Shown here: one piece after another, positions 29,383 to 52,558 of the stretch
How the letters are laid out: the number at the start of each line of letters is the position of its first letter
Numbering within the stretch: position 1 is the stretch's first letter
From: Chloroflexota bacterium
Lineage (GTDB): Bacteria; Chloroflexota; Anaerolineae; Aggregatilineales; J027
DNA length: 64,000 nt
Assembly (NCBI GenBank): GCA_024434115.1
Contig: QMIT01000003.1
Span: 157,282 to 221,281, forward strand
Direction: 5' to 3'
Position numbers and translations under genes: made by a program
The notes under the pieces: model-generated
Seen by the model: the letters and a program-made list of their open reading frames with translations, nothing else
The model's database searches: none
What the model was told of the DNA's origin: nothing

Positions 29383-30378
29383 ATGGGCGTCTCTCTAAAA
29401 TGGACACGTGTAGTACGCGCACAACCTCGATCACGGTTTCATATCGGATTAAGAAGTATGTCGCCAGCACAACGGCGAGAAGCACGTTGGGGATTAATCT
29501 TCATTAGCCCGTGGTTAGTTGGTTTTACGTTCTTCTACTTAATGCCAATGATTGCTTCGCTTATTTTTTCGACCTATGATTTTACGCTTTCAGCACCCGA
29601 AGATGCCCATTTTGTTGGACTGGATAATTGGAATCGTATGTTGTTCCATGATTCCAACGTGTGGGAAGGCCTGCGTATCACATTTACTTTCGGGACGATT
29701 TCATTGTTAATTGGCATGACTTCTGCGTTTCTGCTGGCAGTCTTGCTCAATTCCAAACATTTGTTAGCCCGTAATGTGTTTCGTACTTTGTTTTATGCAC
29801 CAACGATGGTGCCCCTGATCGCAGCAATTGTCATTTGGTCGCGGGTTCTGAATCCCCAAACCGGTTGGCTAAATAAAATCATAGACTCGTTCGGCATCAA
29901 TGCTGTAGGTGTTGATGGCCTGCGCTGGTTGGATGATCCCAATTTGGTCTATTTCGCCTATACCTTTATCGGATTATGGGGTATTGGGAACGCGGTACTG
30001 ATTAATCTTGCGGGGTTACAGGGTGTCCCAACAGAGCTTTACGAAGCCGCTGAGATTGATGGGGCGGGATGGGGTCGCCGACTTTGGAAAATCACCATCC
30101 CAATGGTCAGCCCAATTATTTTCTACAACCTCATCCTAAACGTACTTGGCCTCTTGCAATACTTCATTGTGCCCTGGGTCTTAAATCAGGGTAACGGCTA
30201 TCCCGAAGGCTCGACCCGTTTTTATATGGTCTATTTCTACAAACAGGCTTTCACCTTCCAAAACATGGGCTACGGCGCGGCACTGGCATGGATGCTGTTC
30301 ATTGTTGCTCTGATTATCACAATGTTCCTGTTTACAACAGGCCGTTCGTGGGTCTATTACTCAAGTGAGGAGCACTAA
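29383..30378 (+). CDS. carbohydrate ABC transporter permease (MalF-like)
   Basis: YEAAEIDGAGWGRRLWKITIPMVSP EAA loop. An alternative start is possible at 29458. Confidence 0.9.
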   Translation: MGVSLKWTRVVRAQPRSRFHIGLRSMSPAQRREARWGLIFISPWLVGFTFFYLMPMIASLIFSTYDFTLSAPEDAHFVGLDNWNRMLFHDSNVWEGLRITFTFGTISLLIGMTSAFLLAVLLNSKHLLARNVFRTLFYAPTMVPLIAAIVIWSRVLNPQTGWLNKIIDSFGINAVGVDGLRWLDDPNLVYFAYTFIGLWGIGNAVLINLAGLQGVPTELYEAAEIDGAGWGRRLWKITIPMVSPIIFYNLILNVLGLLQYFIVPWVLNQGNGYPEGSTRFYMVYFYKQAFTFQNMGYGAALAWMLFIVALIITMFLFTTGRSWVYYSSEEH

Positions 30379-35770: not shown

Positions 35771-38700
35771 TTACGGCTCAACCGTAAAGAGCATCCCTGA
35801 ACTGCGGCCATAGACCTCCGGGAAATAGAATTCCTGCCCGGTGGCCGGAATCACATTAAATTGCCCCGGCACCCCCAACCGCAACCGATAAACATAGGTA
35901 TAGGTTCCCGGCCCAAGATACGTCGCGTACAAGACCACTTTTTCATCGCGTAATTCGGTATGCGAGAAATACCACCATCCCCAGTCGGCGCGGTCAGCTA
36001 TTTCGAGATGGGGACGCTGACCGACGATACTCGTGGTCAACAGATGCGGGTCAACCGCTTCTGCACCTGCCGGAATGGGGTCTTCAATCACCACGTAATT
36101 GAGCGAACGCAGGGCTGTAATCGTCAGCATCACGACCACCTCATCGCCCACTTTGGCGCTGGTAATCGGCTGGCGGGCAGGGTCATCGGCAAGGTAATAT
36201 TGGCGCTCGATGGAGATACCCCGCGATGCTGGCTCAATTCCCGGCACATCCAAAAATGTCGTCAGATGGAGGGTGTAATACAGATTACCCGGCCCGTCGC
36301 CATGCGTGATAACGACTTGATTGGCCTCATCCCACAACAATTCTTCGATCTCGACTCTCAGACGCTGCGATTCCCGCACGGTTTCCGGGGTAACTTGTGT
36401 ATCTTCGGGCAATAGTGCTTCGCCATTCAGATCAACGCCAAAAGCATAGTTGGCCTCAAGTTCGCGGGTCAGCAGCATCCAATCGGTGAGAGCCATCACC
36501 GACCATGCGGTTTCTTGAGTCGTCTCCCATGCGTCGGCTTGGCGGGCCGTCATCAACCAGCGCACCGCCCCCGGCAGGAGGTCATTCGTAACATCATAAT
36601 GCGCTAATGCCATCAAAACCAAAGCCGTCGTGCGGGTGTCGGTTGTCCAGTTGTAATAATCAGGCCGATCTTCCCAATGAATCCCTGTCGCGCTGGCACT
36701 GCCCGCAAACGTGGCGGCACTCATGAAATCACTCTTCAGTGTTTCAAGGCGCGGGTCGTTGGGGTCATTTGCCATCATGCTCATCATGAGAAATGCCTGT
36801 GCATCCAGATTCAGGCGGTGACGCTGCTCGTACATCAATGTCAAACGGGCCGCATAGGTCGCCGAATCTAGACCACTGGCGTAGGCGCTGCGATTCAGGG
36901 CATAGAGGATAAAAGCCCGTTGGTTGAGTTGCCAATTCTGTAAACTATCGAGTCCACCACTGCCCTCTTGCTGGGCGATATATCCGTACAAAAAGTCGCC
37001 CGCTCGTTCAATGACACTGGTATCCACCGCCGCAAAACCACTGTTACGCGCCTCACTCAAACCAATCAGGGCGTAGGCCGTCGTTAAAGGATTGGAGGCA
37101 TCACCGGGGAACCAACCCCACCCGCCATCGGAATGTTGAAGCGCATAAAGTCGCTGCAATCCCAAAATCACTTGTTGATTCAGATTTTGCTTCAGTTCCG
37201 GGTTCGATTGATTGAGTTCCGCCAGTGCCCGCATGGTCATGATATTCGGCAAAAAACGACTGACTGTCTGCTCAATACATTGGTGCGGATAGTTCTGCAA
37301 ATAGTTTAGACCATCCAACATCGGCCCGGCCAATGTGTGGTCAAGCCGAATGCGCAGGCTACCACGTTCGGTGTCGGCTTGTTCGGGAAGCTCAATCGTT
37401 TCGGTAACGCGCCGCGCATCTGGCCCATCCAGAACACCCGCCGTGCCAACGGTTTCATGGGCCACATAACGGTATACGGGTAGTAGGCGCTCATCGCCTT
37501 GACCGAGCAAGGGTTTGCTACCATCGGTATAGGAGCCATCTTCATTCCGAACAGTGAAGGTCGCGTCAATGTCCGAAACATCTAGGACGACAATGGGCCA
37601 ATCCACACGCTGCCGCCCTTGTGCCGGAATGGTAACGGTTTGGATAAGGGCAACATCGTTAAGCACATTAAACCCCGTCCCAATTAACTCCACCTGTACG
37701 GTTTGCTCTTGGCGGGTATTGTTGTTAACAATTGCACCGATGCTGAGTTCATCGCCCACGACAAAAAAGCGCGGGGTAACGGGTCGAATCAGCAGCGGCT
37801 TGGTGCTGACAAAATCCGCTGTAGACTGCCCGACCAACATTGGCCCATCGGCCCCTGTCGTAATAGCACGGGCATCAATATGCCATGTGGTCAAATTATC
37901 GGGCAGGGTAATACTCACTTGGGCTTGCCCATTTTCATCCGTAACTACGCTGGGTTCCCAAAGGGGGGTATCCACAAAATCTTGGCGGATTTCGATAATC
38001 CCCGGATACCCGCCGCCACCGCCGCCACCGCCTTTACGCCCATTGGTGACATATTGAACATAATCATCAGCGGAGATCGTTAAGGTAGAGGCCGTCATAA
38101 TCCCCAAACCGCGCCGACTGTAAAAGTATTCCAACAGGGGTGGACTATTGGGGGACATAAGCCCTAAAACTGATAAGTCCGTGACTCCAATCCCCACTTC
38201 GGCACTCACCGGATTACCTGCCCAATCGTGTGTTTTGACATCAAGGGTGACAGTATCTCCCGGCCCGACGGTTTCAACACCCTCTGGCATAACGGGCGTC
38301 ACTTCCACATCCATCACCAACCGCTCAGTATCAACCGTCAAGGGAATCATGCCAAAGCGGAACTGCGCGTAAGTGGTATGCTCGTCAATGCCCTTAACCA
38401 ACATCACCGAGACATAGATATTGGGGGCATAGAGGTCTTGAATCGGCAGTTGATAAACATAGGAATTGGTGGTCATGTGAATAACTTCGGTATGCAAAAA
38501 GCTGTCGCGTTCCACCGTGACCAATGCTAGGGTTTCGCCTTGAAATGGACTGGGGATCAAAATTTGGGCCGTATCACCGGGGCGATAGGTATCAGCATCA
38601 GCAATGAGGGTAATGCGATTGTCGTTGCGCTGTCGCCATGAGACATATTCAGGGCTGGAAACCCACATAAATCCACTGCTTAGGATTTCGTTGCCAGCAT

Positions 38701-41700
38701 CATCACGGGTCGTGGCATAGAGCTTATATGTTCCCCCACGCGGCGGCACGTATTCCACTTGACCCTTGCCCTCGGCATCCAACGTTACGGAACCGCTGGC
38801 GACTTCGACCTCTTCCAAATCCCATGTCCATGCCATGCGTCCGTCAGTATCTTTTTCCAACACACTCGTCCAGCGGCGCTCGACAATGCGGTAATCTATC
38901 ACCTGATTCGGTACGGCTTGGCTGTCCCAATCGACTGCGATCAAATTAAAGCGCGATGTTTTGCCAGCCTCACTCAAATAGCTATCTGGCGCGACTCCCA
39001 CATAAACCTTGCCTTGATGCACCACCACTCGCACACGTCCGGAGACGGGTTGATTACTTTCATCGGTGACGGTGGCCTCAATCGTATAGACTTGGCTGCC
39101 GGGGTGATTAGCGGCTCCGGCGGGTAGGCGGATAACAAAACGGCCTTCTGCATCGGTCACACCTTCGCCTTCCGATACTTTTTCGGCCCACACCCCCGAG
39201 GTCGTCTCGATATAGTTCTCGGTATCAAGGCGGTCATAGTCAAAATCTTGGAACGTCCAGCGTCCACGTCCCTGATAGTTAAAGTAATAGTCTTGGCCCA
39301 GTGCTACCCATTTAATCTGGGCGTTGCTGACCGCGCCCCCAAAAAAGTATCGGGCATCAATGGTCACATCTACCATCTCGCCCATCAACACTTCACTGGC
39401 TGCGGGGGTCGCTTGGACTTCATATTCCGGCGCGTGATACTCCGCGACATTAAAGGTTAAACCCGGCAGATTCCAATAGTACCCCGTGTAGCGGTTGTAA
39501 TATTCCTGATAGCTTGGCAGCGCAACCGCAATACGATAGTTGCCAAGACTGGCCTCGTCATCCAATTTGAATTCGCCAGAAAATGTGCCCTGCGGATTAA
39601 CCTCAATGCGCTCCTCGTAGATTTTCTGATTTGACGCATCATAAATTTCGATGGGGACAGTTCGGTGTCCCGGCATCACACTGTACAAAACATCGTCTTG
39701 TTTACGTAGGATGCCCCGGAAATAGACGGTCTGACCGGGGCGATAAACCGGACGATCACTGTAGAGATACAGACGTTGATTACTCTGTTGGTAATCCATC
39801 TCGACATTAAAATCGCCGGGTTGGATGCCGTAGATGAGACGGTTTGAGACGAAGCCGAAATGTTCAGGCGTCTGTACTACTGCGTAGAGCGTGCCGTAAG
39901 TATCCAGTTTGGGTAGATCAACGATCACAAGGCCGTTTTCATCGGTGCGCCCAAAAGCGACCACACTGAACTTGTCGTCATAAAATTTCACCAGCAAATT
40001 GGGTTCGGGATTCCCCGTTTGCATGTTTGTAACCCATGCAAGGGCTTCATGTTGGCTGTACTTAAACGTGATATTGACGGTTGCCACAACCATCACATGG
40101 GCATTAGCTGGATAACCGCGTTTATTGGATTGAGGCGAGTTGACGTAGAGCAGATACGCCCCCGGTTCAAGGGCTTTATATTCACCGTTTTCAATCAAGG
40201 GCACATCGGAAAGGGGTTCGACAAAATACGCGGATAGGCTGCCTTCTGGAATCCAGCCTTCGGTCTCATCTTCAAAGTTCTTGACCATCCACCACAAATA
40301 CCCCTCGGCACATATCGGGCCGTCTTGCACCCAGAAGGTTGTGCCAGCGGCATATTGGGTCACGGTTTCGCTGCCAAAACTGGCCTCAGCATGAATGGGC
40401 AACGGGCGAGGGTCATCGTCTGTCACACGTGCCTCAATATCCACACTCAAGCGTCGGGCCGCCACTCCCTGACAGGCGAAGTCCTCCAGACCACGATCTA
40501 CTTCTTCGGGTGAAATCAAAACCATCCGGTCACGCGATACATTCAGGGGTGAGGCCACCGGAACTTGCCATGAACGCAACCGTTGGTTGGCACGATTATC
40601 CCGGTCAGGTTGGCTATTGCTACGTGCCACCCCTGCCAGCGAGGGTAAATCCAACCGATAAAGCTGTAATTCAATGGTATCAATGTTGCGATGTGAGACA
40701 AACAAGCGTGTTGTGGGGTCATACGCATTGTAGACTGCCATCATACCGGGGACATTCAGTCTGAGAGATGGCTCATAGGCCCGCGTCGCAAAATTGATTT
40801 CGGCGGATGTAGTGATTTCATTGCCATAAATATCACGCATCCCCGGTTCTAGGGTAATGGCGTAATTGACATTGGGCAGGCTTCGGAAAATCACAAAATA
40901 GGCATTCCGCCATTCTTCATAATACCCGCCGATTTCCCCTTCCGGGGCAGGGTCTATCTTAATCTTATCCGCGATGCTGTCGGCGTCCATCGGGGCATTA
41001 AAGAAGATACTGAAACTGCCACCGGGGTCAACATTACGTTCTCCATCGGCGGGATACGTCCGATAGTAATCAGGATAGGGCACGGTGCGTAAGGGCCGCA
41101 AATAGTCATTATTCAGTTCCGCACCCGTCATAGATCGCAGAATGGCCTCATCACCAACCAGCAAATAAATCGAGTCGAGTTCAAGGGTATCAAGCGTGCG
41201 CAGTCGAACCGTCCGACGATCCATTGACCACGAATATCCCATGCGCACTCTGTCCCCATCCCAAGACTCGATATACAGGCCATTTTGTGTAACAGGATTC
41301 ATGGGCTGGGTAAAGCTCAATTCGAGAATAGGTTTTAGGGGTATATCAAATGGGGCAAAAAGTTCTCGCTCGGCTATCAGGCGCTCAACGGCCTCGTCTT
41401 GTTCTTCGGTATGACGCACACGTGGGGCATTCAACACACGGGCATTGGCAAACGTGGGTTTAACAGTGGAAAAGCTAAACTGATAATCCTCTTCCAATAC
41501 GGCGTCGGTGGGGGTTTTAAGTCCGGCATCAATCGTAATGGTATAGGTCGTTCCACCAATAAATCCCAGTTCAGGCTTAAAGGTGTAGATAGAGGTATTG
41601 AGCCACTCGCCTGTCCCAGTCGTTTCTGGTTCGATGTGTACCGGGTTAACGAGATCGGCCTGATACCCAATACTGGTCAGGGGCACAACCGGACGGTTAA

Positions 41701-42193
41701 AGATCACTGTGACGACGGTATCGGTGGAAACATTGGTAGACCCGTTTCCCGGCAGGACTTCCGATATTTGCAGAGAATTCGTGGTAAATAAATGGAGCCG
41801 ATAGGCATCCTCCATTGGGACATCTTGTGTATCCTCGGCAAATACACTGAAGATCACATCGCTGTCGGTTGGATACCCTTCGAGCGGTGGGGAAAACCTG
41901 AGAATACGTCCCCCATCCACCCATTCCCACACGCCGCCTTCTATAGCGGGGTCAACGCTAAAGGTGCCGCCGCTCTCCATATTCATGGGACGGTCAAAGG
42001 TAAACTCAACTGAACGTTGCAGACCTAGTTCTTCGCCATTTTCCGGCGATGTTTCAATAATCTTTGGTGTTGTATTTCCGGCTTGATTGGGTGGAGCGGC
42101 CTGTGGAGAATTCGGTCTAATAAGGGCAAAAATAACGGTACAGATTATCAGTGCCAATGGCAGAGATACCAAAACACGCTTGCGCTTCAGCAT
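35771..42193 (-). CDS. alpha-2-macroglobulin family protein with thioester motif (2140 aa)
   Basis: CIEQ thioester site in YPHQCIEQTVSRFLPN. A2M domain DFVDTPLWEPSVVTDENGQAQVSITLPDNLTTWHIDARAI. HSDGGWGWFPG helical-toroid block. N-terminal TM anchor from ATG 42193. Confidence 0.9.
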   Translation of the reverse strand: MLKRKRVLVSLPLALIICTVIFALIRPNSPQAAPPNQAGNTTPKIIETSPENGEELGLQRSVEFTFDRPMNMESGGTFSVDPAIEGGVWEWVDGGRILRFSPPLEGYPTDSDVIFSVFAEDTQDVPMEDAYRLHLFTTNSLQISEVLPGNGSTNVSTDTVVTVIFNRPVVPLTSIGYQADLVNPVHIEPETTGTGEWLNTSIYTFKPELGFIGGTTYTITIDAGLKTPTDAVLEEDYQFSFSTVKPTFANARVLNAPRVRHTEEQDEAVERLIAERELFAPFDIPLKPILELSFTQPMNPVTQNGLYIESWDGDRVRMGYSWSMDRRTVRLRTLDTLELDSIYLLVGDEAILRSMTGAELNNDYLRPLRTVPYPDYYRTYPADGERNVDPGGSFSIFFNAPMDADSIADKIKIDPAPEGEIGGYYEEWRNAYFVIFRSLPNVNYAITLEPGMRDIYGNEITTSAEINFATRAYEPSLRLNVPGMMAVYNAYDPTTRLFVSHRNIDTIELQLYRLDLPSLAGVARSNSQPDRDNRANQRLRSWQVPVASPLNVSRDRMVLISPEEVDRGLEDFACQGVAARRLSVDIEARVTDDDPRPLPIHAEASFGSETVTQYAAGTTFWVQDGPICAEGYLWWMVKNFEDETEGWIPEGSLSAYFVEPLSDVPLIENGEYKALEPGAYLLYVNSPQSNKRGYPANAHVMVVATVNITFKYSQHEALAWVTNMQTGNPEPNLLVKFYDDKFSVVAFGRTDENGLVIVDLPKLDTYGTLYAVVQTPEHFGFVSNRLIYGIQPGDFNVEMDYQQSNQRLYLYSDRPVYRPGQTVYFRGILRKQDDVLYSVMPGHRTVPIEIYDASNQKIYEERIEVNPQGTFSGEFKLDDEASLGNYRIAVALPSYQEYYNRYTGYYWNLPGLTFNVAEYHAPEYEVQATPAASEVLMGEMVDVTIDARYFFGGAVSNAQIKWVALGQDYYFNYQGRGRWTFQDFDYDRLDTENYIETTSGVWAEKVSEGEGVTDAEGRFVIRLPAGAANHPGSQVYTIEATVTDESNQPVSGRVRVVVHQGKVYVGVAPDSYLSEAGKTSRFNLIAVDWDSQAVPNQVIDYRIVERRWTSVLEKDTDGRMAWTWDLEEVEVASGSVTLDAEGKGQVEYVPPRGGTYKLYATTRDDAGNEILSSGFMWVSSPEYVSWRQRNDNRITLIADADTYRPGDTAQILIPSPFQGETLALVTVERDSFLHTEVIHMTTNSYVYQLPIQDLYAPNIYVSVMLVKGIDEHTTYAQFRFGMIPLTVDTERLVMDVEVTPVMPEGVETVGPGDTVTLDVKTHDWAGNPVSAEVGIGVTDLSVLGLMSPNSPPLLEYFYSRRGLGIMTASTLTISADDYVQYVTNGRKGGGGGGGGYPGIIEIRQDFVDTPLWEPSVVTDENGQAQVSITLPDNLTTWHIDARAITTGADGPMLVGQSTADFVSTKPLLIRPVTPRFFVVGDELSIGAIVNNNTRQEQTVQVELIGTGFNVLNDVALIQTVTIPAQGRQRVDWPIVVLDVSDIDATFTVRNEDGSYTDGSKPLLGQGDERLLPVYRYVAHETVGTAGVLDGPDARRVTETIELPEQADTERGSLRIRLDHTLAGPMLDGLNYLQNYPHQCIEQTVSRFLPNIMTMRALAELNQSNPELKQNLNQQVILGLQRLYALQHSDGGWGWFPGDASNPLTTAYALIGLSEARNSGFAAVDTSVIERAGDFLYGYIAQQEGSGGLDSLQNWQLNQRAFILYALNRSAYASGLDSATYAARLTLMYEQRHRLNLDAQAFLMMSMMANDPNDPRLETLKSDFMSAATFAGSASATGIHWEDRPDYYNWTTDTRTTALVLMALAHYDVTNDLLPGAVRWLMTARQADAWETTQETAWSVMALTDWMLLTRELEANYAFGVDLNGEALLPEDTQVTPETVRESQRLRVEIEELLWDEANQVVITHGDGPGNLYYTLHLTTFLDVPGIEPASRGISIERQYYLADDPARQPITSAKVGDEVVVMLTITALRSLNYVVIEDPIPAGAEAVDPHLLTTSIVGQRPHLEIADRADWGWWYFSHTELRDEKVVLYATYLGPGTYTYVYRLRLGVPGQFNVIPATGQEFYFPEVYGRSSGMLFTVEP

Positions 42194-42405
42194 TTGAAAT
42201 CTCCCCTCGTCAAAACTACTTTTCACGAGGTTATAACATGGGGCTGATGCTTCTGTTGAACGCGCAGGCCACGTCTGTTCAATTGCTACCCCATGCCCGT
42301 CTTCCAAAAGGCTGACAAATAGCTGACGTGGTTAATTTACGCTAGGCGGTCATTGAATAAATTGTTTCAGGCGGAAAAACTGAAGAGGGTTCTTTTCTGC
42401 CGATC

Positions 42406-43812
42406 TTATTCGCTTAATTTTGTGTTTGCCTCATTTATCACCTCAATCAAATCAAGATTTTGGCCTTGCTGAATGATTTGCATGTACTGGTCACCGCCGA
42501 GCACCACTTCCAATTCTCGGCAAATAGAATCAAATAAGCGACGATTGAGATGGAAGGCATACCGATGCAGAACGCCAGTCCATCGTGCTGCTTGTTCATA
42601 TTCTTGACCGTGCCAGAAAAAATGAACCACGATAAGCAGCGTTTTTGCCAAATAGGGTTCAATCTTAAGCTGAAGAGCAAGTTCAATGGCCTCCAAAATG
42701 GCTTGACGGGCTGGTTCATACCGATTTTGCAGAAGGTCTAAGTAGGCCATATACCCTCGCGCGAGGCAGACATAGTAAGGGGTCTTTCTTAGGTGGGCCA
42801 ATTCAAGGGCGTCATCATAACACTTGACTGCTGCCTCAAAGTTACCGAGGTGGGTATAAATAAGGCCCAGATCAATCATCCCACTCACCACCAAGTTTTT
42901 CATATTGATCGAGTCGGCAACTTGGATACCCTCTTGATAATGGCTAATGGCAGAATCCAGCTTATCCAGTTCGACTTCACACATCGCCAAACTAAGCAAG
43001 GCGGCGGGCAGCATTCGCATAAACCCAACATTACGGCATATTTGCACAGACCGTTCGGCTTGCTGCTCCGCCGTGACAAAATCTTGCAGGGAGACAAGGC
43101 TGTTGCTAAGGGTGAGTAGCGCGACGCTCAACTCTCCCTCACGGCCTGTTCCCTCTACGATTGCCAAATATTTGGCAAAATAATCGTATGCCAACTGATA
43201 GTCGCCGCGAAAATGTGCCACTCGGCCAATCCCCTGATAAACACGACCAATCTCGGCGGTTGCTTGGCATTTTTCAAATAGAACGAGCGCTCTATTTAGC
43301 AAATCTTCCGATTCATCGAACTTGCCTAGTTGTTGGGCAACTGATGCCAATGTATAGTAAGCTCGCCCTATACTTAAGGCATCTTTGGCCCGTTGACCTA
43401 AAATCAATAGCTGGTTGGCAAGCTGGGTGGCTTGTTCCGCGCGAGCCGAATAAAAATGGGCCTGTGCAAGATGATGCAATATAGTACACTGAGCCTCAGC
43501 ATTTCCGACCAGAATCGCCGCATCAAGTGCCTGTTGCAGCCAAGTTACCCGCTCGGATGGCGTTTGGCGTACCCGCAAAATATCAATTCCCGCAATAGAA
43601 AATCCCACACATAATTGGGCTTTGTCTAGCTCATCCGCTGCGCTAACTGACCATGCTTGCCATTGGCGGATTTGACTCCAGTCCTGTTCGATATGGTTAT
43701 ACCAATAGGTGCGGTTACCATGCCCCCGCCGAAAGGCTGTATTTGCCTGTTGCAGCCGCGTCACATAATGTTGAGCCAACCGATATTGAAGCGTGCCAAC
43801 AGAAGATGCCAT
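42406..43812 (-). CDS. tetratricopeptide-repeat protein (the TPR sensor part of an AfsR-like STAND regulator, encoded separately)
   Basis: 468 aa of degenerate TPR units (e.g. GRVYQGIGRVAHFRGDYQLAYDYFAKYLAI). The ATG shares one nucleotide with the upstream stop codon (TAATG). Confidence 0.85.
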   Translation of the reverse strand: MASSVGTLQYRLAQHYVTRLQQANTAFRRGHGNRTYWYNHIEQDWSQIRQWQAWSVSAADELDKAQLCVGFSIAGIDILRVRQTPSERVTWLQQALDAAILVGNAEAQCTILHHLAQAHFYSARAEQATQLANQLLILGQRAKDALSIGRAYYTLASVAQQLGKFDESEDLLNRALVLFEKCQATAEIGRVYQGIGRVAHFRGDYQLAYDYFAKYLAIVEGTGREGELSVALLTLSNSLVSLQDFVTAEQQAERSVQICRNVGFMRMLPAALLSLAMCEVELDKLDSAISHYQEGIQVADSINMKNLVVSGMIDLGLIYTHLGNFEAAVKCYDDALELAHLRKTPYYVCLARGYMAYLDLLQNRYEPARQAILEAIELALQLKIEPYLAKTLLIVVHFFWHGQEYEQAARWTGVLHRYAFHLNRRLFDSICRELEVVLGGDQYMQIIQQGQNLDLIEVINEANTKLSE

Positions 43813-45635
43813 TAGCTCATCACCTCATCTAAAAGCGAGCGTGCATGTAAGACCAAGAGGGCGTGCATTTGGAAGCGCCCCCCACCAACGGGTTCTAAGA
43901 GGCCACGATTGACCAGTAACCTTGCAATCGGTTTGGGGTCGTCTACCTCCCATACGACGGCCATCGCGGGCAAGTCAAATGTCGCAGGTTTGGCAACAAA
44001 TAATCCCAAATAAGCGAAATACTGGCGAGTTAAGGCATCAAGCGAATCCGTGCTACGTTTGAGAAGCGCGGTAATCGTCAGCGAGGTATCGGACTTGTTT
44101 CCCAACATATCACTAGGCGCTTGAGCGGTCAGTAAACTGGCCCCCTCTCTTAAATCCGCCAATAACTCACTCACACCCCATCCCAATCGAGCCTCGCTAT
44201 GCAACAAACGACCTGCCACATGAATCGCCAAAGGTAGGCCTTCGAGATCACGTACCAATTGTGTGGCTTCATCAAATTGATTGGCAACGGTTTCGGGGGT
44301 GAATTTTGCTAATAGTTCCAGTGCTGCCTGTTCCGTCAAGACCGGCAGGCGATAAATATCATTAGCGGTCGGAGCAAGAGCAGTTGCTACGTCATTCAAA
44401 CGACTGGTCATGACCAATGCGCAATTCTTTCCCCCAACTCGAAACGGTTGGGCATGATCCGCCTGCCACACATCATCCACAATCAGCAGCATTCGTTTGT
44501 CCCGCAGCACCGCCGTCAATTGGGCACTGATTTCTTCGACGGTGCGGGCTTGACCGGGTTCATTTAAACGCAATGCCTCCGCCCAAACTCCGATTTCACT
44601 CGCAATACTAGGATTTTCGCCTAACGAAGCCCATAAGACACCATCGGGATAATACTGGCTGAGTTCCAAATCGTGGGCCAGTGTTGCCACAAGGGTGCTT
44701 TTGCCAACACCCGGCCAGCCTTGAATAACGGTGATTGGACGTGCTTCCGGACTGCCCACGCCAAGCCGCTGCTTAATCGCATGGAGCGCGGCTTCACGTC
44801 CCACCAAAAGCGATGGGAGGGGCGGCATCACACCTGAAATAGGTGGGCTAATCAAATCGGTGGACGACACAAACGTAGGAGTACCCTGTTGAATAGCCTC
44901 AAAAAGTCGGGTGGTCTCGCTTTCGGGTGGAGTAGCAAGTTCACTATCCAAAATTTCCACACACTGGCGATACTGGCGCAGTGCTTCTGACCGCTGACCA
45001 TTCGCAGCATACAAACGCATCAAGTGGCGATGGGCAGGCTCGTGCAGGGTATCAATCTCCAACCACTGGATGGCATGACGAATCGCTTGTTCATACTGGT
45101 CCAAGTCAGCATAATAGTGAGCTAGGCGGCGTTGGACATCGGCATATTCGCGGCGCAACCATTCGCGTTGGGCCAACTGCCAGTTCTCAAATTCCAAATC
45201 ATCCGGCAGATTAAATCCGATCAAAAAATCATCGCTATAGAGTGTTGCAGCTTGTTGATAAAAATCTACACAATCTTTACAAATGCTATCCGAGCCGTGC
45301 GGATGGGCGCTATTCGCTGCGAGTAGTTTTTGGAAAGCGATCACATCAACCCATACTACTTCTCGTTTGAGACCAATGGTCATACGATCCGCTTGAATCC
45401 ATTCGATATCCATCACTTTGGTCAGTGCTCGTAGGGCACTTCGCAAAGCTGACCGCGCATGATCCTCATCTTGATCCGGCCACAATAGACTGGCGATCAC
45501 CTCGCGGCTCTGCATTTGTTCAGATAATGCGAGATAGGCGATAAGGGCCACGGCCTTGCGGCGTTCAACTTTGACGGCTGTGCCTTGAAATTCGATGCGT
45601 GGGGTTCCTAACAAATACACCCGCAAGCCACTCAT
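43812..45635 (-). CDS. SARP-family regulator (OmpR-type wHTH + BTAD) fused to an NB-ARC/STAND ATPase (AfsR-like)
   Basis: LLGTPRIEFQGTAVKVERRKAVALIAYLAL wHTH. BTAD helices (HEPAHRHLMRLYAANGQRSEALRQYRQC). Walker A GWPGVGKSTL and Walker B LLIVDDVW. Confidence 0.85.
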   Translation of the reverse strand: MSGLRVYLLGTPRIEFQGTAVKVERRKAVALIAYLALSEQMQSREVIASLLWPDQDEDHARSALRSALRALTKVMDIEWIQADRMTIGLKREVVWVDVIAFQKLLAANSAHPHGSDSICKDCVDFYQQAATLYSDDFLIGFNLPDDLEFENWQLAQREWLRREYADVQRRLAHYYADLDQYEQAIRHAIQWLEIDTLHEPAHRHLMRLYAANGQRSEALRQYRQCVEILDSELATPPESETTRLFEAIQQGTPTFVSSTDLISPPISGVMPPLPSLLVGREAALHAIKQRLGVGSPEARPITVIQGWPGVGKSTLVATLAHDLELSQYYPDGVLWASLGENPSIASEIGVWAEALRLNEPGQARTVEEISAQLTAVLRDKRMLLIVDDVWQADHAQPFRVGGKNCALVMTSRLNDVATALAPTANDIYRLPVLTEQAALELLAKFTPETVANQFDEATQLVRDLEGLPLAIHVAGRLLHSEARLGWGVSELLADLREGASLLTAQAPSDMLGNKSDTSLTITALLKRSTDSLDALTRQYFAYLGLFVAKPATFDLPAMAVVWEVDDPKPIARLLVNRGLLEPVGGGRFQMHALLVLHARSLLDEVMS

Positions 45636-45648
45636 TGGTCTTGTCCCC

Positions 45649-45693
45649 CTGTCACGATTCTGTCACCAAGCTGTCGCGCAGCTTCCCTATACT
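45649..45693 (+). promoter_or_regulatory. candidate SARP box plus -10 element (P1) upstream of the PD40/FG-GAP gene
   Basis: CTGTCAC (45649-45655), CTGTCAC (45660-45666) and CTGTCGC (45671-45677) lie at exact 11-bp spacing. They are followed by GCAG, 6 nt and TATACT (45688-45693). No -35 hexamer is present. Confidence 0.5.
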
Positions 45694-45891
45694 GACCGTC
45701 AATCAAGCAATGCTTGAGCTGTGTGTCAGTCAGCAATGTTTCCACCCATTGTAGTGGAATTTGCAGCACGGCGTTTCCCAGCAACGAAATTACACATGGC
45801 AATGACCATGTAATCGTGGGACAGCCGTACTGGATAGGCTCCATTGCTGACAATGCCACATTTCGTTGGATCAAAGGGTTGGGAGAATATC

Positions 45892-48447
45892 ATGCGAATA
45901 TCAGCAAATGAGTATCGTACAGTGCGGACATCTGTCATCTTATTGGCAGTGGTCGCCATCTTGTTTTTTCTGATTGGCTGGCCGGCCCATTCTCAGGGGC
46001 AGTCAAGTCAACGGATTGAGTCGGATAATGCGTTGGTCAGTCGTGAAGGCAATTGGTCATCACAAACAACGGCAGCAGCCAGCGACGGAACCTATCTCTA
46101 TTCGAGCGGGGCCGAAGGGGATGTGCTGGAATTGGAGTTTGTTGGCACCACACTGGAAGTCATCTATATCGCTGGGCCAGCCTTAGGCACATTGGCCCTA
46201 GAGGTGGACGGCACAGTGCTACGAACAGTCATCACGAGAACTGACCAAACCGCGTATGGACAAAGCACCATTATCAACTATCTGAGCAATGAACCCCATA
46301 TCCTCCGAGTCTATGCCCAAGAGGGCGGCATCGTGGCGGTGGATGCTTTTGTCATCTCCACCGAAGAAGCCACCGATACAACCACCAGTGGCGACGAGGA
46401 AGGTGGGATATTTGCCAGCACCTGCACTCCGGTGAATGCCATCCATCGCGTCAGTCTCGACTATCACAATCAGCAGGTATCCGGCGCATTTACCAACAGT
46501 GACTCGGCTCTATCGGAAGATGGACGTTTTGTCGCCTTCGAATCTGCCTCGTCGGAATTGGTAGCAGGCGATACCAATGGCCTGATTGATATTTTTGTGT
46601 ATGACCGCCAAACCTGCCAAATTAGCCGAGTGTCCGTTGCGAGTGATGGTACGGAGGCAACCTTGTCATCCGTCAATCCTGATATTTCAGCCGATGGACG
46701 TTATGTCGTATTTGAGACAAGTGCTGCGTTGGTTAGCGCAGATTCAAATGGCGTCAGCGACATTTACATGTATGACCGCGACACCTTTACGATCACCCGT
46801 ATCTCGCGGGGCAACATTGCTCTTCCCCAAGCGAATGGGGCTTCCCGTAACGCCTCGATTTCTGGCGATGGGACACGCATTGCCTTCGAGTCTACCGCCA
46901 CCAATCTAGTGACGGGTGATACGAATGGCGAATCAGATATTTTCCTGCGTGATCTCACGGCAGGTACGACAACCCGAGTCTCGCTGACCAATGCCGGAAA
47001 TGAAGCGACAGGGGGTGGCTCGTTTATGCCAGATATTGCCTCAGCGGGCGGTCATGTCGCCTTTGAATCCGAGGCGACCAATCTAGTAGCGAATGATAAC
47101 AATGGTGAACGTGATATTTTTGCGCGGGCACTGACGGCGGGGACTACTATTCGCGTCTCCATACCATCCGGCGGAGGCCAAGCCAACGGGAATTCATGGG
47201 ACCCGGCGATCTCGTCCAATGGTACGATTATCGCCTTTGAATCCGATGCGACGAACATGGTTGCAGGCGATACCAATAATTTCCGGGATGTGTTTGTGCG
47301 CACCACCAGCGGCGCCCCCACCACCTCATTGGTTTCGGCCTCGACTGCGGGAACACTCGGCGCTCTTCCATCAGCGAACCCTGCGATTGCGAATGGTGGA
47401 CGTCAAATCGTCTTTGAATCCGATTCCCCCTTAGCCACTGAAGACACTAATGGTTGGACGGACATCTACGTGCGTGACCGCGTTGCCAATACGACCACCC
47501 TCGTTTCGATAGCACGGGATGGAACGTTGGGGGATGACAATACCAGCTATCCGGCCATTTCGGGCAATGGTAATTATGTCAGCTTTGAATCGGAAGCCAC
47601 CAATCTGATTTCAGGGGATACGAACGATGACCCGGATATTTATGTTGCACCGCGTTTCCCCACACCTGCTGATAATCTCGCAGTGTTCAGTCCCAATTTC
47701 CAGATTGTTGGTCTCGTAGATGGCTTGGGCGATCCACCTGCTGCCGATGACTACACCTTCTATTCAGCTTATGCACCAACAACGGGCGGGCTGTGGGTCA
47801 TGGGTGACTGGGACAGCGATGGCCTAGAAACTCCCGGCGTCTATAGTAATGGCGCGTTTTTCTTCACCAATGAACCGGGTGAGACGGAGGATTGGGAACT
47901 ACTCTGGATCGGTGTGACCGGGCCGCCTGTAACCGGACGGTTCGATGCAGCCCTTTCCAATGACTGTATTGGAGTCATTGATGGGGCAGATTTTCCGCCC
48001 TACGGAATGGCCTTTGTCCTCTACTACACCTGTGACCTATCGGGCAATCTCCTGCCCGCCATCGGGTATCAATGGCTGAGTGTCTTGTTACCCGATTCGG
48101 CAGGTTTTACAGGCACACATCAGTTCTCCGCAGGCGATTTTGATGGGGACGGGGTGGCAACGATTGCGTGTCGGCGCGGGACTTCGATCACGTGGACTAA
48201 CGATGCAGCCACAACAGGCACTGGAGGCTTCCCGTTTGCGCAATATATCGGCGCACCGGGTATCAGTGATGAAGGCGCTTTTGTAGCGGGCGATTGGGAT
48301 GGCGACACCATCGCCTCATTCGGGCTGTACTATCAAGATGGGGAATTCTACTATCGCCACGATCTCGATTGGAACTCAGGGGTATATTTCAATCAATCGC
48401 TTGGTGTGCCGTTGGCAGGTGTGACACAGGTCTCAGCTTGGCGATAG
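45892..48447 (+). CDS. secreted protein: N-terminal beta-sandwich, about nine PD40/TolB-like propeller repeats, C-terminal FG-GAP/VCBS-like repeats
   Basis: Signal/TM after ATG 45892 (GGGAG RBS). Repeated unit S.DGR.VAFES.A.NLV.GDTNG..DIF. C-terminal GDWDSDG, GDFDGDG and GDWDGDT motifs. Confidence 0.8.
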   Translation: MRISANEYRTVRTSVILLAVVAILFFLIGWPAHSQGQSSQRIESDNALVSREGNWSSQTTAAASDGTYLYSSGAEGDVLELEFVGTTLEVIYIAGPALGTLALEVDGTVLRTVITRTDQTAYGQSTIINYLSNEPHILRVYAQEGGIVAVDAFVISTEEATDTTTSGDEEGGIFASTCTPVNAIHRVSLDYHNQQVSGAFTNSDSALSEDGRFVAFESASSELVAGDTNGLIDIFVYDRQTCQISRVSVASDGTEATLSSVNPDISADGRYVVFETSAALVSADSNGVSDIYMYDRDTFTITRISRGNIALPQANGASRNASISGDGTRIAFESTATNLVTGDTNGESDIFLRDLTAGTTTRVSLTNAGNEATGGGSFMPDIASAGGHVAFESEATNLVANDNNGERDIFARALTAGTTIRVSIPSGGGQANGNSWDPAISSNGTIIAFESDATNMVAGDTNNFRDVFVRTTSGAPTTSLVSASTAGTLGALPSANPAIANGGRQIVFESDSPLATEDTNGWTDIYVRDRVANTTTLVSIARDGTLGDDNTSYPAISGNGNYVSFESEATNLISGDTNDDPDIYVAPRFPTPADNLAVFSPNFQIVGLVDGLGDPPAADDYTFYSAYAPTTGGLWVMGDWDSDGLETPGVYSNGAFFFTNEPGETEDWELLWIGVTGPPVTGRFDAALSNDCIGVIDGADFPPYGMAFVLYYTCDLSGNLLPAIGYQWLSVLLPDSAGFTGTHQFSAGDFDGDGVATIACRRGTSITWTNDAATTGTGGFPFAQYIGAPGISDEGAFVAGDWDGDTIASFGLYYQDGEFYYRHDLDWNSGVYFNQSLGVPLAGVTQVSAWR

Positions 48448-48474: not shown

Positions 48475-48505
48475 GGTCGGGTTACAAAGCCCGGCCTTTT
48501 TGTTT
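48475..48505 (+). terminator. intrinsic terminator of the PD40/FG-GAP gene
   Basis: GGTCGGG (48475-48481) pairs with CCCGGCC (48490-48496), including one G-U pair, followed by TTTTTGTTT. Confidence 0.65.
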
Positions 48506-48518
48506 AGGCCCTATACGG

Positions 48519-48552
48519 TTGTCACGTTTCTGTCGCGCAGTTTTTTTATACT
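48519..48552 (+). promoter_or_regulatory. second copy of the SARP-box promoter module (P2)
   Basis: TTGTCAC (48519-48525), 4 nt, CTGTCGC (48530-48536), GCAG, 6 nt, TATACT (48547-48552). 23 of 27 nt are identical to P1 across CTGTCGCGCAG-N6-TATACTGACC. Confidence 0.45.
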
Positions 48553-48558
48553 GACCTC

Positions 48559-48640
48559 TGTCTCGATCATCTTGCACTTGTATTGTCTCAACCCTTCTCA
48601 TCTGCTCCCATTTTTGCAGGGGTTGAGACATACCTTTTTT
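48559..48640 (+). ncRNA. candidate small RNA (about 80 nt) between promoter P2 and an intrinsic terminator
   Basis: No ATG or RBS-preceded ORF. 11-bp stem TGTCTCAACCC (48584-48594) with GGGTTGAGACA (48620-48630), plus an inner CTGC/GCAG stem, followed by TACC and TTTTTT (48635-48640). Confidence 0.3.
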
Positions 48641-48645
48641 GAGAA

Positions 48646-49527
48646 TTAGCCCAATTCCCTATTCCGGGTTTGGCCCATTAGATGGATATAACCATCTTCC
48701 AGACTTGGCTCAGTGGATATGGCGTTCGGAAAGGCCCCTGCATCCCCGATCACCCGATACTGCGTCCCTTGCGCCAACTGAAGTGTGGAAACCACATTTA
48801 GACCGTGATTCGGGCGTTCTCCATCCGTCACAATGTTCCAGACCTGACCGCGTGTTTTTTGGATTAACTCATTGGGCGCACCGCGAAACAACACAGTGCC
48901 GTTATACATGATGGCTAAATCACGGCAACTTTGGCTAATGTCTTCAATGATATGGGTCGAAAGGATCACCGTCGCATTTTCCGCTAGTTCAGAAAACAGG
49001 TTTCGCAGCCGTACTCGTTCTTCGGGGTCAAGCCCTGCGGTTGGCTCGTCCACAATCATAAGCCGGGGGTTGCCAATGAGTGCCTGAGCGATGCCGATGC
49101 GCCGTTTCATACCGCCGGAATAAGTCTTTAGCCTGCGTTCTGCTACCTCGGTCAGATGTACTTTTTCTAAGGCTTCCTGTACTTGCTGTTTGCGCTGCTG
49201 ACGATTGGTAACACCCTTCAAAATAGCGACATAATCTAAAAACTCGGCCCCAGTTAGATGTGGATAGAGGCCAAGTTCTTGTGGCAGATAGCCCAATATA
49301 GCTTTGGCGGCTTGTTTACCTTTTAGGGTGTGCATATCGTGTCCATTGACTTCGACCCGACCCGCCGTCCAATGCAGCAATCCCGCGATAATTCGCATCA
49401 GGCTGGTTTTGCCCGCGCCATTTGGCCCAACCAAACCAAACATCCCAGTCCCGATTTCAAGTGAAATATCATTCAGTGCCGTGACATCGCCTTTATAGAT
49501 TTTGGTGAGGTGTTCAATCTTAATCAT
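48646..49527 (-). CDS. ABC transporter ATP-binding protein (ABC-2/DrrA-like)
   Basis: Walker A GPNGAGKTS, signature YSGGMKRR, Walker B LMIVDEPTAGLD. Confidence 0.9.
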   Translation of the reverse strand: MIKIEHLTKIYKGDVTALNDISLEIGTGMFGLVGPNGAGKTSLMRIIAGLLHWTAGRVEVNGHDMHTLKGKQAAKAILGYLPQELGLYPHLTGAEFLDYVAILKGVTNRQQRKQQVQEALEKVHLTEVAERRLKTYSGGMKRRIGIAQALIGNPRLMIVDEPTAGLDPEERVRLRNLFSELAENATVILSTHIIEDISQSCRDLAIMYNGTVLFRGAPNELIQKTRGQVWNIVTDGERPNHGLNVVSTLQLAQGTQYRVIGDAGAFPNAISTEPSLEDGYIHLMGQTRNRELG

Positions 49528-49537
49528 GGTATCGCTC

Positions 49538-50353
49538 CTAATGTTGTTCTTTCCAACGCATCCAGCCCCACATCGCCATCCCGATTAGGGCAAGTTCGCC
49601 TATGCCGACCAACGCCGTAATAACCGCATCCGTGAGTGCCCCAGCTTGATTAATCCGTATATAGTAGGCAAAGATCGGCCAACGTAACGGACTGATGAAA
49701 TCCCAGAGGTCAGCACTTTCCCTTATGTTGCTGTCCATGCCCAGAAAATTGGGTAGGATAAACATGCAGCCAATGGTTAACAGCACGGCTCTTAGGCGGT
49801 TGGGTTGAGTGGCGGTGAGCAAAACACCCATACCCCCGTTGAGTACAGTCAGGATACCGAGGCCCATCATCCACATGCCGATATAAGGTAAGGGTTTGTA
49901 GCCTCCCAGAAAAAACCACCATAACACACCTGTAATGACCATTAGAACAATATTGCCCCATAATACCGCCGCCCATACCCCCATAACCTTCCCCGACAAA
50001 TATGTACCACGCGACAGAGGAAGGCTCTGGAAAAGCTCTGAGACCCCACTTTGTCGGTCAAGAGGGATGGTATCCGCAACACCAATGGGCAAAAGAAATC
50101 CGAAGGTTACCGCTCCAACAAACCACGTGGAAAAAATGGCAAACCACGTGTTCAACTCAGCATCTGATAGCCCCGTCTCATCCTTGACTGGCCCATAAAC
50201 ATTCTTCTCAAAGTCTTCGGTATGTTGGAGTAAACTGGTAATCACGATGAGCGCAAAAAGGGCAATCATCAAAATCTTCAAGGCCCGTCGTCGCCAGTGC
50301 ATTTTCAACTCGTACCAAATCATGCCGCGCAGTTGATGTGTAACGTTATTCAT
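49538..50353 (-). CDS. ABC-2-type transporter permease
   Basis: 271 aa with six predicted TM helices. Directly upstream of the ATPase, with a 4-nt overlap with the preceding gene. Confidence 0.65.
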   Translation of the reverse strand: MNNVTHQLRGMIWYELKMHWRRRALKILMIALFALIVITSLLQHTEDFEKNVYGPVKDETGLSDAELNTWFAIFSTWFVGAVTFGFLLPIGVADTIPLDRQSGVSELFQSLPLSRGTYLSGKVMGVWAAVLWGNIVLMVITGVLWWFFLGGYKPLPYIGMWMMGLGILTVLNGGMGVLLTATQPNRLRAVLLTIGCMFILPNFLGMDSNIRESADLWDFISPLRWPIFAYYIRINQAGALTDAVITALVGIGELALIGMAMWGWMRWKEQH

Positions 50354-51171
50354 AGCCCCTCCACTGTTTTTGAAATTGCGTTACGGGTACGTCCTTTGGA
50401 AGTAGCCCCCAGTAGGACGGTCTCTTCATCGCGTAGATAGGCCCCCGCCCGGCTGATCAAAAAACATCCGATTAAGGACACAAGAGCACGATTCACCCAA
50501 TAATCCTCCCAGCCTAAGTCCTCCGGATGCAAATAGGGGTTCACCGACCAGAGATAGGGCTGAACATGATTCAATGGAAAAATGACAGGCATACCGGGTA
50601 AAAGCAGAGGGCCAAAAAACAGCCCTACAAACCACACCAGTGCTGCGATTGCCACCCCGAAGGCCAGAACCCGCGATTTGAGCGTTGTATATGCCCCTAC
50701 ACCCATCAGCAAAAGCGTGGGTGGTAGCCAACGAATCAGGGCCAAACCAAGCATCTGATACTCAAAGAATAAAAAACTAATGAGAATGCCAGCAATGGCG
50801 GCAGCGGCTTGAAATATGAAGGCTAGGCCCAAGCGTTCGGCCAATATCCACGCCACAGGTCGGGGATACGTCAACAAGATTTCTAGTGCGTTTTCATCTG
50901 CTGGGGAAAACAAAACAGCAGCTTGAATACCCATGACCAGCGGAACAATGATTTCGACCACTCGGCCTTTATCCTCCCATAGTCCAAAATCGCCGCTTGC
51001 TAAGAACAGCATCAGGAAGAATCCCAGACTAGCCAACAATCCCCACACTCCAACCGTGCGGAAGGTCGTCCGTAGGGTAAATTGAGTCCGGTATCGGGCG
51101 AAGGTCTGGATCGCACGCCATCCGTTCCAAGAAACAATGGCTATCAATCCGACTAGAACTAAGTAAATCAT
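50350..51171 (-). CDS. polytopic membrane protein (second ABC-2-like permease subunit?)
   Basis: 273 aa and highly hydrophobic. 4-nt overlaps on both sides. Confidence 0.55.
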   Translation of the reverse strand: MIYLVLVGLIAIVSWNGWRAIQTFARYRTQFTLRTTFRTVGVWGLLASLGFFLMLFLASGDFGLWEDKGRVVEIIVPLVMGIQAAVLFSPADENALEILLTYPRPVAWILAERLGLAFIFQAAAAIAGILISFLFFEYQMLGLALIRWLPPTLLLMGVGAYTTLKSRVLAFGVAIAALVWFVGLFFGPLLLPGMPVIFPLNHVQPYLWSVNPYLHPEDLGWEDYWVNRALVSLIGCFLISRAGAYLRDEETVLLGATSKGRTRNAISKTVEGL

Positions 51172-52013
51172 GCCGTTGTCCTTAATTCCCGGTCAGATTT
51201 TTCAAGGAATAGAAATGTGGTCAATAGGGCCAATACTGCCGCTATCAAGAGAAAGGGGCGGGTACTTTCGTCACGCAGGCCGGGCAGTGACAGTGCATAA
51301 ACAAGCGTATGGTCAGGGGTTGCCTGGGTGAGAAAAACGTGCAGACTCCACATAAGCAGGGACACGGCGATGCTGAATGCTGTGCTGCGTAAAACGACGC
51401 TCATCAAAAAAGCAACCGACGACAAGAAGGTCATGGGCAAAAACCAAGCCAGAATCAGTGGGCCAAGCGAGATTTCAGCCCTTGCAATGGCTAAGATAAC
51501 ACTGCCACCTAAAGTCATGATGAGATTGAAGCTAAAAATCAGCATCAAACGAGCTAACAAAATCCGAAGGATACCTGTTGGGGTGGCGTCCTCAATTTCA
51601 AACTGGATTTCGTATTCGGCATCATAAAGCAGACCCACCCCCACTGCCGCCATAATCGGTGCGAGGATCACCAGCGGCGCAAAGGCATCAGTGTCTGGTT
51701 GATAGGCTACCAACGTGACAAAGGTGCCGATCAAGATGACCAGCGCGGAGGCTGCCCACAACTCCTTACGAATGATCCACAACTGGCCCTGCAAAATAAG
51801 CCACATCCAGCGCAGATTACGTCGTTGATTCCCACTAGTAGCCAATCCTTCAACTGAGAGCCGAGTGAGCAGTGCTTGAATTTCAGCATTGGACGTTGTC
51901 GGGTTAGGCCATTGTTTAAGGGCTTGGATAGGGCCTATGAGCGCATCTGCCGTACCATCCGAACCAGTATCCTCGACTAACATATCTCGCAAACGCTTAG
52001 GGTCGTCGGTCAT
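51168..52013 (-). CDS. membrane protein in the anti-sigma position (about 80-aa cytoplasmic N-terminus plus multiple TM helices)
   Basis: Starts 4 nt inside the ECF sigma gene. No zf-HC2 motif is visible, so the function is inferred from position only. Confidence 0.4.
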   Translation of the reverse strand: MTDDPKRLRDMLVEDTGSDGTADALIGPIQALKQWPNPTTSNAEIQALLTRLSVEGLATSGNQRRNLRWMWLILQGQLWIIRKELWAASALVILIGTFVTLVAYQPDTDAFAPLVILAPIMAAVGVGLLYDAEYEIQFEIEDATPTGILRILLARLMLIFSFNLIMTLGGSVILAIARAEISLGPLILAWFLPMTFLSSVAFLMSVVLRSTAFSIAVSLLMWSLHVFLTQATPDHTLVYALSLPGLRDESTRPFLLIAAVLALLTTFLFLEKSDRELRTTA

Positions 52014-52558
52014 GTTGATTCCTCCATTAACTCACGCAGCCGCCGGAGGCCTATACTTAAGCGCGATTTGACCGTGCCTTCTGGAATTTTTAGGCTTTCC
52101 GCGATCTGGGCCAGTGGCATTTCCTCGTAATAGCGCAAGAGAATGACTTCGCGCTGATGTAAGGGCAGTTTGGCAAGGGCTTGGATGACCTGCTGGGTTT
52201 CCTCATAGGTGGTCAACTGCGTTTCTGGCAATGGCTCGATATCCCTTAGGTTATGCCAGTCCATTTCCGACGCAGTAATCGTATGGCGCGTGTCGGCCTG
52301 TTCAAAATGCTGCCGGACGAGATTGGTGGCTATCGCATAAAGCCATGCTTTAAAAGGGCGGGGGTATTGATATTGATGGATGTTCCGCAGTGCCCGAAGA
52401 AACGTTTCTTGTGCCATATCCTCACTCAATAACAAATTCCCATTGGTCATCCGGTAAAGATAGCCTTTCAATGGGCTATAATGCCGCTCCACCAACAGTG
52501 CCAAATTGGGAATACACCCTTGTTGAATTCCTTGGGCCAGTGTTTCGTCGGTTTGCAA
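52010..52558 (-). CDS. RNA polymerase ECF-type sigma-70 factor
   Basis: Region 2 (SEDMAQETFLRALRNIHQY) and region 4 (REVILLRYYEEMPLAQIAESLKIPEGTVKSRL). TTG start is preceded by AGGAG. Confidence 0.9.
   Translation of the reverse strand: MQTDETLAQGIQQGCIPNLALLVERHYSPLKGYLYRMTNGNLLLSEDMAQETFLRALRNIHQYQYPRPFKAWLYAIATNLVRQHFEQADTRHTITASEMDWHNLRDIEPLPETQLTTYEETQQVIQALAKLPLHQREVILLRYYEEMPLAQIAESLKIPEGTVKSRLSIGLRRLRELMEEST

Follow-up and report, generated by a model that had tools for sequence, protein, structure and literature searches.

The locus described here raises the question of whether three short direct repeats, found in front of a -10 hexamer between two divergent genes, form a promoter that depends on an activator and, if so, which protein reads them and which gene they serve. 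The repeats lie in a stretch of 64,000 nt of Chloroflexota DNA (the window in what follows; G+C about 50%), within the 256-bp gap (45636-45891) that separates a minus-strand gene for a SARP/NB-ARC regulator from a plus-strand gene for a PD40 protein with its ATG at 45892. To our knowledge, SARP activators have been studied almost only in actinomycetes, where they are switches of antibiotic gene clusters. A first-pass annotation made from the letters alone had proposed that the repeats are the operator of the adjacent regulator and drive the PD40 gene. The features of the locus are as follows.

42406-43812, minus strand: separate TPR protein, 468 aa (Pfam TPR_12, TPR_MalT)
43812-45635, minus strand: presumed cognate regulator, 607 aa, with OmpR-type winged helix, BTAD (SARP domain) and NB-ARC STAND ATPase
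45649-45656, plus strand: repeat unit 1, distal, CTGTCACG, the heptad CTGTCAC plus G; predicted position -51 to -44
45660-45667, plus strand: repeat unit 2, CTGTCACC, with the heptad CTGTCAC at 45660-45666; predicted position -40 to -33
45671-45678, plus strand: repeat unit 3, promoter-proximal, CTGTCGCG, with the heptad CTGTCGC at 45671-45677; predicted position -29 to -22
45688-45693, plus strand: -10 hexamer TATACT, 10 bp past heptad 3
45700-45891, plus strand: predicted start (about 45700-45701, in a conserved TCA) and leader of about 190 nt of the PD40 mRNA
45892-48447, plus strand: presumed target gene PD40, 851 aa; signal or anchor segment at the N-terminus, and PD40/beta-propeller repeats (Pfam PD40); gene call and RBS read from the sequence
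48475-48505, plus strand: intrinsic-terminator-like hairpin and T-run, read from the sequence, predicted to end the PD40 transcript

When the coordinates were re-read, the three heptads, their 11-bp phasing (starts at 45649, 45660 and 45671), the GCAG-N6-TATACT behind them and the limits of the divergent region proved to be exactly as first annotated. The repeats are laid out as 8-bp units with 3 non-conserved bp between them, the start of unit 3 lying 17 bp 5' of the start of the -10 hexamer, and heptad 3 is joined to TATACT by GCAG (45678-45681) and six further bases. The 11-bp period puts all three units on one face of the helix. The absence of a -35 hexamer, also noted at first pass, is confirmed by the hexamers 16-18 bp 5' of TATACT, which match TTGACA at no more than one of six positions, and by a sigma-70 scan, which returned no plus-strand promoter at the element. 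A search for triples of any heptamer with starts 11 bp apart, one mismatch at most being allowed, gave this site alone in the 64-kb window; in 300 first-order Markov simulations of the window the mean was 0.017 such triples per window, and five of the 300 contained any. Triple heptamers at periods of 9, 12 and 13 bp are missing from the window, and a period of 10 bp gave one unrelated triple. The latter (29311-29337; three GATTCTG/GAGTCTG heptamers) sits in a sugar-type ABC transporter operon, in the gap that separates the gene for the solute-binding protein (27788-29200) from that for the first permease (29383-30378), with a LacI-family regulator gene upstream (26497-27600).

The start of transcription is predicted at about 45700-45701 from the position of the -10 hexamer and from a conserved A or CA 7-8 nt downstream of it. 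In the leader that would result (45700-45891), neither a small ORF nor a riboswitch or Rfam family is recognisable (an Rfam search gave nothing above noise), and the fold of this leader is unexceptional, with a z-score of only -1.65. The public runs in which the sequence occurs are metagenomes of bioreactor and wastewater sludge; in those labelled as RNA, represented by assembled contigs, the coverage is flat and DNA-like, and a true metatranscriptome gave zero coverage of the sequence.

The arrangement can be compared in detail to known SARP promoters. SARP targets are direct repeats at 11 or 22 bp, the 3' repeat being held at a fixed short distance (about 8 bp) from the -10 (PMC10972967, PMC10936776). 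In the structure of AfsR with RNA polymerase, two protomers lie side by side on two 11-bp repeats, from -40 to -19 with the centre at -29.5, and displace sigma region 4 from a poor -35 (PMC10936776; bioRxiv 10.1101/2023.09.04.556155), while within each 11-bp repeat AfsR contacts the leading 8 bp and not the last 3 (PMC10936776). With TATACT set at -12 to -7, units 2 and 3 of the present element cover -40 to -19, again with the centre at -29.5, and unit 1 lies at -51 to -44; the geometry matches that of published SARP promoters (PMC10936776), as the first-pass annotation had maintained. Unit 2 would then occupy the usual place of the -35 and be the counterpart of DRup in the afs box, and unit 3 would be the counterpart of DRdown. 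The locus offers what is expected of a SARP operator: direct heptameric repeats, of which at least two are spaced at 11 (or 22) bp, a -10 located 10 bp after the last heptad and 9 bp after the 8-bp unit (with a predicted start site), a -35 that is poor or absent, and a protein with winged helix and BTAD encoded by the adjacent gene.

The afs box, through which AfsR acts on the afsS promoter of Streptomyces coelicolor, has the identical placement at -40 to -19 over the -35 and the same 11-bp direct repeats with about 8 conserved and 3 non-conserved bp. However, it has two repeats where the present element has three, and its sequence differs from the GTCAC core found here, where the -10 is also near consensus. 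A further difference from the afsS promoter is that the target here is divergent and the box abuts the start codon of the regulator. The operators of DnrI, ActII-ORF4 and PimR likewise consist of three heptameric repeats with 4-nt spacers at or over the -35, and their 3' repeat likewise keeps a fixed short distance from the -10 (PMC10972967, PMC10936776). They belong to actinomycete antibiotic clusters, though, and have another heptad sequence, whereas no antibiotic biosynthetic genes or cluster were seen near the SARP gene in the window.

The adjacent gene had been called an AfsR-like SARP, and this holds. Pfam places BTAD at residues 96-249 (1.7e-20) and NB-ARC at residues 281-481 (1.9e-23), and residues 4-602 align with Streptomyces AfsR (PDB 8k60, E 3e-21), so that the regulator shares with AfsR the order of an N-terminal SARP domain (winged helix and BTAD) followed by an NB-ARC/NOD ATPase. 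AfsR, however, is a single chain with a C-terminal TPR region and its host belongs to the Actinomycetota, whereas the TPR part here is a separate, translationally coupled protein in a Chloroflexota genome, its ORF start overlapping the regulator stop by 1 nt. The STAND/TPR sensor of the first-pass annotation needs refining in that its TPR part is not on the polypeptide of the regulator. The TPR protein is presumably a sensor or partner module of the kind that is fused to the regulator in AfsR. The same split into SARP-NB-ARC and TPR ORFs is present in all orthologous loci examined (L005, L007, L008 and L009), one of which (L008) has two consecutive TPR ORFs. The locus would work like AfsR yet is not a canonical single-chain member. 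The regulator belongs to a large family of proteins of about 608 aa, for which a search at E<=1e-30 gave 1380 matches; identity to the regulator is 60-72% in the best 120 of these, except for two at 95%, and the named sources among these 120 are Anaerolineae, Phototrophicaceae, Chloroflexi/Chloroflexota and Ktedonobacteria. Further genome records extend the family to Aggregatilineales and Chloroflexia, and the closest database proteins come from metagenome-assembled genomes (MAGs) of Anaerolineae and other Chloroflexota. On one flank the locus is bordered by the gene for a bacterial alpha-2-macroglobulin of 2178 aa (35771-42307, minus strand), and on the other (48646-52558, minus strand) by an operon for an ECF sigma factor, two proteins without a Pfam match, an ABC-2 permease and an ABC ATPase.

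Three orthologous loci were fetched by protein homology alone: L007 (72% identity), L008 (67%) and L009 (64%). All three carry three YYGTCAC heptads at 11 bp, followed by N10 and TATACT or TATAGT, with heptad 1 about 13 bp from the regulator ATG and the element pointing away from the regulator. Unit 1 is kept in the alignment of the loci, and the 4-bp spacers and the flanks differ among them. A second and unbiased sample consisted of orthologues taken from metagenome contigs by protein homology and scored with a 45-nt position weight matrix. The box lies above the 99.5th background percentile in 15 of 22 orthologues (identity of at least 54%), 7-30 nt from the start codon; by the same scoring the remaining seven have no recognisable box, nor does any of five paralogues (37-46% identity). 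The conservation of the heptads that the first-pass annotation had named as a check in related genomes is thus found upstream of orthologous regulator genes, where phasing and distance to the -10 are kept and spacers and flanks diverge.

Across the orthologues examined, all from Chloroflexota and with 54-72% protein identity, the unit consensus is yTGTCACG, three times, followed by TATAnT. The footprint of 26 aligned sites reads cctT-ctGTcACG-nnn-cTGTcACG-nnn-ttGTCaCG-N9-TATAcT, with 1.31 bits per position in the 8-nt units, 0.30 in the 3-nt spacers and 1.60 in the -10 hexamer. Fifteen of the 26 sites came from a pattern that forces the core bases and the other eleven were chosen by homology; both the positions left free by the pattern and the eleven sites chosen by homology agree with the picture given by all 26. 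The three units are about equally conserved in the 26 sites, and among the homology-chosen ones the middle unit is the most variable. A collection-wide scan, in which TATANT could lie 9, 10 or 11 bp past unit 3, yielded at least 119 loci, most of them in Firmicutes. The gap is 10 bp in 108 of the 119 matches listed (9 bp in two and 11 bp in nine), which indicates that this spacing is under strict constraint. Among the matches listed, 15 of the 23 from Chloroflexota immediately precede the gene of a SARP orthologue or paralogue, and in about 25 lineages the place of the box is fixed at 7-30 bp from the SARP start codon while the gene on its far side varies.

Three-unit GTCAC boxes were also seen in L057 (3172-3214) and L125 (2771-2813), just 5' of the start codons of distant SARP paralogues (33-36% identity to the SARP domain) in Anaerolineae and Caldilineales MAGs, which implies that such self-adjacent boxes reach beyond the orthologous family. 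In L014, from a Dehalococcoidia MAG, at least seven GTGTCAC-like units follow one another at an 11-bp period on the minus strand (about 5063-5105; GTCACATAAGTGTCACGTGAGTGTCACAAAAGTGTCACATAAGCGTCACGTAAGTGTCATATAGTGTCACC). This array is longer than any SARP box found here, and there is no SARP gene within 8 kb of it.

Conservation in orthologues, geometry and linkage to the regulator gene all speak for the reading put forward at first pass, and the element is, with good probability, a SARP-type activator-dependent promoter. Short repeats can of course arise by chance, as the unrelated period-10 triple at 29311 illustrates, and the three heptads could in principle be without function. Against this stand the low chance expectation (0.017 per window), the second copy of the element in the same window (see below) and the retention of position, phase and -10 distance in orthologues down to 54% protein identity; the conservation data effectively refute such a reading, whose likelihood is negligible. 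More weight attaches to the idea that the repeats are mainly an autoregulatory operator or a 5'-UTR element of the SARP gene, the PD40 gene being transcribed from elsewhere. This would account for a box that always lies beside the ribosome-binding site of the regulator with a far-side gene that is not conserved, and in L009, alone among the loci scanned, a sigma-70-like regulator promoter lies beyond the box, so that the regulator mRNA would cross the repeats. However, the -10 is directed away from the regulator and is conserved, with 1.6 bits per position, at a distance of exactly 10 bp from unit 3; its reverse complement, AGTATA, makes a poor -10. Nor did consensus scans of the window, L007 and L008 bring out a regulator-sense promoter in any consistent way. 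Moreover, boxes without an adjacent regulator gene stand before other genes (site 2 of the window, L031, L084, L104 and L115). As the principal role of the repeats, autoregulation is improbable; as a second function it is compatible with an activator-dependent promoter, since a box that abuts the ribosome-binding site of the regulator would, when occupied, probably also feed back on regulator expression.

The sequence comparisons make it highly likely that the site functions as a promoter with an activator site for a winged-helix protein, and the adjacent SARP is the likely binder. The question of the binder arises from the Firmicutes matches. GTCAC repeats of the MtrA type are boxes of OmpR/PhoB-family response regulators. 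In Lachnospiraceae, Oscillospiraceae, Paenibacillus, Brevibacillus and others, three xxGTCAC units at 11 bp are followed by N10 and TATACT (examples among L012-L129 are L030 2985-3027, L052 1713-1755 and L038 737-779), ahead of genes for MacB/Bce-like ABC-transporter ATPases or Van-type D-Ala-D-X ligases; this suggests a response-regulator box that is widespread and shares the geometry of SARP boxes. Most of the matches listed are of this kind, with the box just downstream of a response-regulator and histidine-kinase pair and upstream of the ATPase or ligase gene, and in one Anaerolineae MAG (L101) a box precedes an ABC-transporter ATPase gene of the Firmicutes kind. As the architecture of these VanR-like boxes is identical to that of the box here, and SARPs bind DNA through a domain of the same winged-helix class, the motif alone cannot name the binder, and a response regulator of the OmpR/PhoB family encoded elsewhere might read the box and control the SARP locus. 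Such a regulator, with receiver and Trans_reg_C domains, is not found at the locus: a phmmer search with a Firmicutes query against all six-frame ORFs gave no OmpR-type response regulator in the 64-kb window, and none is present in the 20-kb loci L005, L007 and L009, while a receiver-domain/kinase hybrid about 7 kb away in L008 has no DNA-binding domain. The Firmicutes boxes lie beside a receiver-domain regulator and a histidine kinase. They also have a signature of their own, an additional inverted GTGAC upstream and aGTCAC inner units, which is missing here. The constant position of the box before the SARP start codon in about 25 lineages, with a changing far-side gene, likewise ties it to the SARP, as does the box sequence, which tends to follow the SARP recognition helix: GTCAC units accompany HARSALRS, and in orthologues with ARAALRS..PAL the units are of the GTTGC type or no box can be recognised. 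This covariation, seen in few independent lineages, is suggestive. Control by a distant response regulator is accordingly an improbable explanation, slightly more so than a mainly autoregulatory operator.

The two-heptad form of the pattern has a further match in the window (48519-48536), which turned out to be part of a second copy of the whole element, downstream of the PD40 gene and past its predicted terminator.

48519-48552, plus strand: site 2 element, TTGTCAC-N4-CTGTCGC-GCAG-N6-TATACT, with the -10 at 48547-48552
48580-48640, plus strand: stable hairpin and U-run (fold -26.1 kcal/mol, z -3.8), about 20 nt past the predicted start of promoter 2

Written out, site 2 is TTGTCAC-gttt-CTGTCGC-GCAG-N6-TATACTGACC, and it has the GCAG and GACC flanks in common with site 1. 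Its two proximal heptads are intact and the distal one (48508-48514) is degenerate; in L005, a relative with 95% identity, this third heptad is intact and reads GTGTCAT. Given the hairpin and U-run at 48580-48640, promoter 2 would yield a transcript of only about 80 nt in the window. In L005 (4231-6820) the same promoter and hairpin precede a second PD40 paralogue of 719 aa, and the window lacks the 2.48-kb segment that holds this paralogue. Site 2 is best read as the promoter of a lost PD40 paralogue, now an orphan with a decayed distal unit. Site 2 and the hairpin are located between the PD40 gene and a convergent ABC-transporter gene, and strain variants in the sludge runs have 1-nt indels at 48512 and 48610.

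Additional boxes within one genome are found elsewhere as well. The MAGs BC1.4 and CHL11 each have a regulator-adjacent box (L087 and L075, respectively) and another box on a separate contig (L031 and L084, respectively) before unrelated genes. In Candidatus Leptovillus affinis (L115, about 2029-2075) a three-unit box with TATAGT was seen 12 bp 5' of a 92-aa ORF, which was judged MbtH-like by eye from a sequence motif. This hints that the regulon in some Chloroflexota reaches non-ribosomal peptide genes.

As regards the gene that is served, the first-pass annotation had tied the box to the PD40 gene. In the lineage of the window PD40 would indeed be the target, a secreted beta-propeller protein in the place that afsS has in the AfsR/afsS system, but what is conserved beside the box is the regulator gene and not PD40. 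The gene next downstream of the box in most relatives is instead an uncharacterised ORF of 60-83 aa, so that these loci, like afsR/afsS, have a small adjacent target. The small ORF is carried by the following loci.

L007 8463-8669, minus strand: small ORF
L009 9649-9831, minus strand: small ORF
L019, L023, L025, L072, L075: small ORF
L079, L094, L107, L134, L135, L146: small ORF

At its N-terminus the small protein carries the conserved peptide MKxFxPWQDTVxLLAG..PRPGExF, and its C-terminal tail is hydrophobic. It has no Pfam family and no detected similarity to anything named; its database relatives number only 13, twelve of them unnamed and one called 'hypothetical protein'. A class-V aminotransferase gene often comes after the ORF, and in one case precedes it. 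In L081 the small protein forms the N-terminal part of a fusion with a Big_9/cadherin-like secreted protein of 585 aa. No homologue of the small ORF was found in the window or in L005. A fragment (FHPL*) in the PD40 leader of about 190 nt resembles MKxIFHPWQD and was considered as a relic of the small ORF, but was rejected as the profile scores are negative. With a far-side gene that is not conserved, the stable unit is the regulator together with its box, and PD40 is a lineage-specific target.

Taken with the AfsR structures, these data allow a mechanism to be proposed. Protomers of the SARP domain of the adjacent regulator would bind abreast, one per unit, with the two proximal units taking up -40 to -19. 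Once bound, they would hold sigma region 4 and the core of RNA polymerase, and these contacts would make up for the missing -35. Transcription would then proceed from about 45700, away from the regulator gene and into the PD40 beta-propeller gene. The NB-ARC ATPase and the separate TPR protein (42406-43812) presumably gate this activity, and the promoter copy at 48519-48552 would belong to the same regulon and would once have served the second PD40 paralogue.

The phylum, the split regulator and the fixed attachment of the promoter to the regulator gene are new, and the mechanism is of a known kind. A more far-reaching interpretation, which is speculative and rather doubtful, is that the locus represents an undescribed and widespread Chloroflexota cassette, consisting of a two-polypeptide STAND switch with its own three-unit operator-promoter and an ancestral membrane-anchored target of 60-83 aa, which has been re-targeted and duplicated here. 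The small protein could then be the functional counterpart of AfsS, or a feedback ligand of the TPR partner, and the lineage of the window would have re-targeted the promoter to secreted beta-propeller proteins. The promoter logic of the SARPs, in which phased repeats stand in for the -35 and are placed as in the cryo-EM structures of AfsR, would extend to the Chloroflexota, in which the regulator is highly conserved and its sensor module is a separate protein, with named matches in Anaerolineae, Aggregatilineales, Chloroflexia and Ktedonobacteria. The analysis yields an operator consensus, yTGTCACG three times and then TATAcT, and with it a means of predicting regulons in uncultured Chloroflexota of wastewater and soil. 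The detached TPR protein offers a natural experiment on how STAND switches work, and the small protein is a candidate partner analogous to AfsS.
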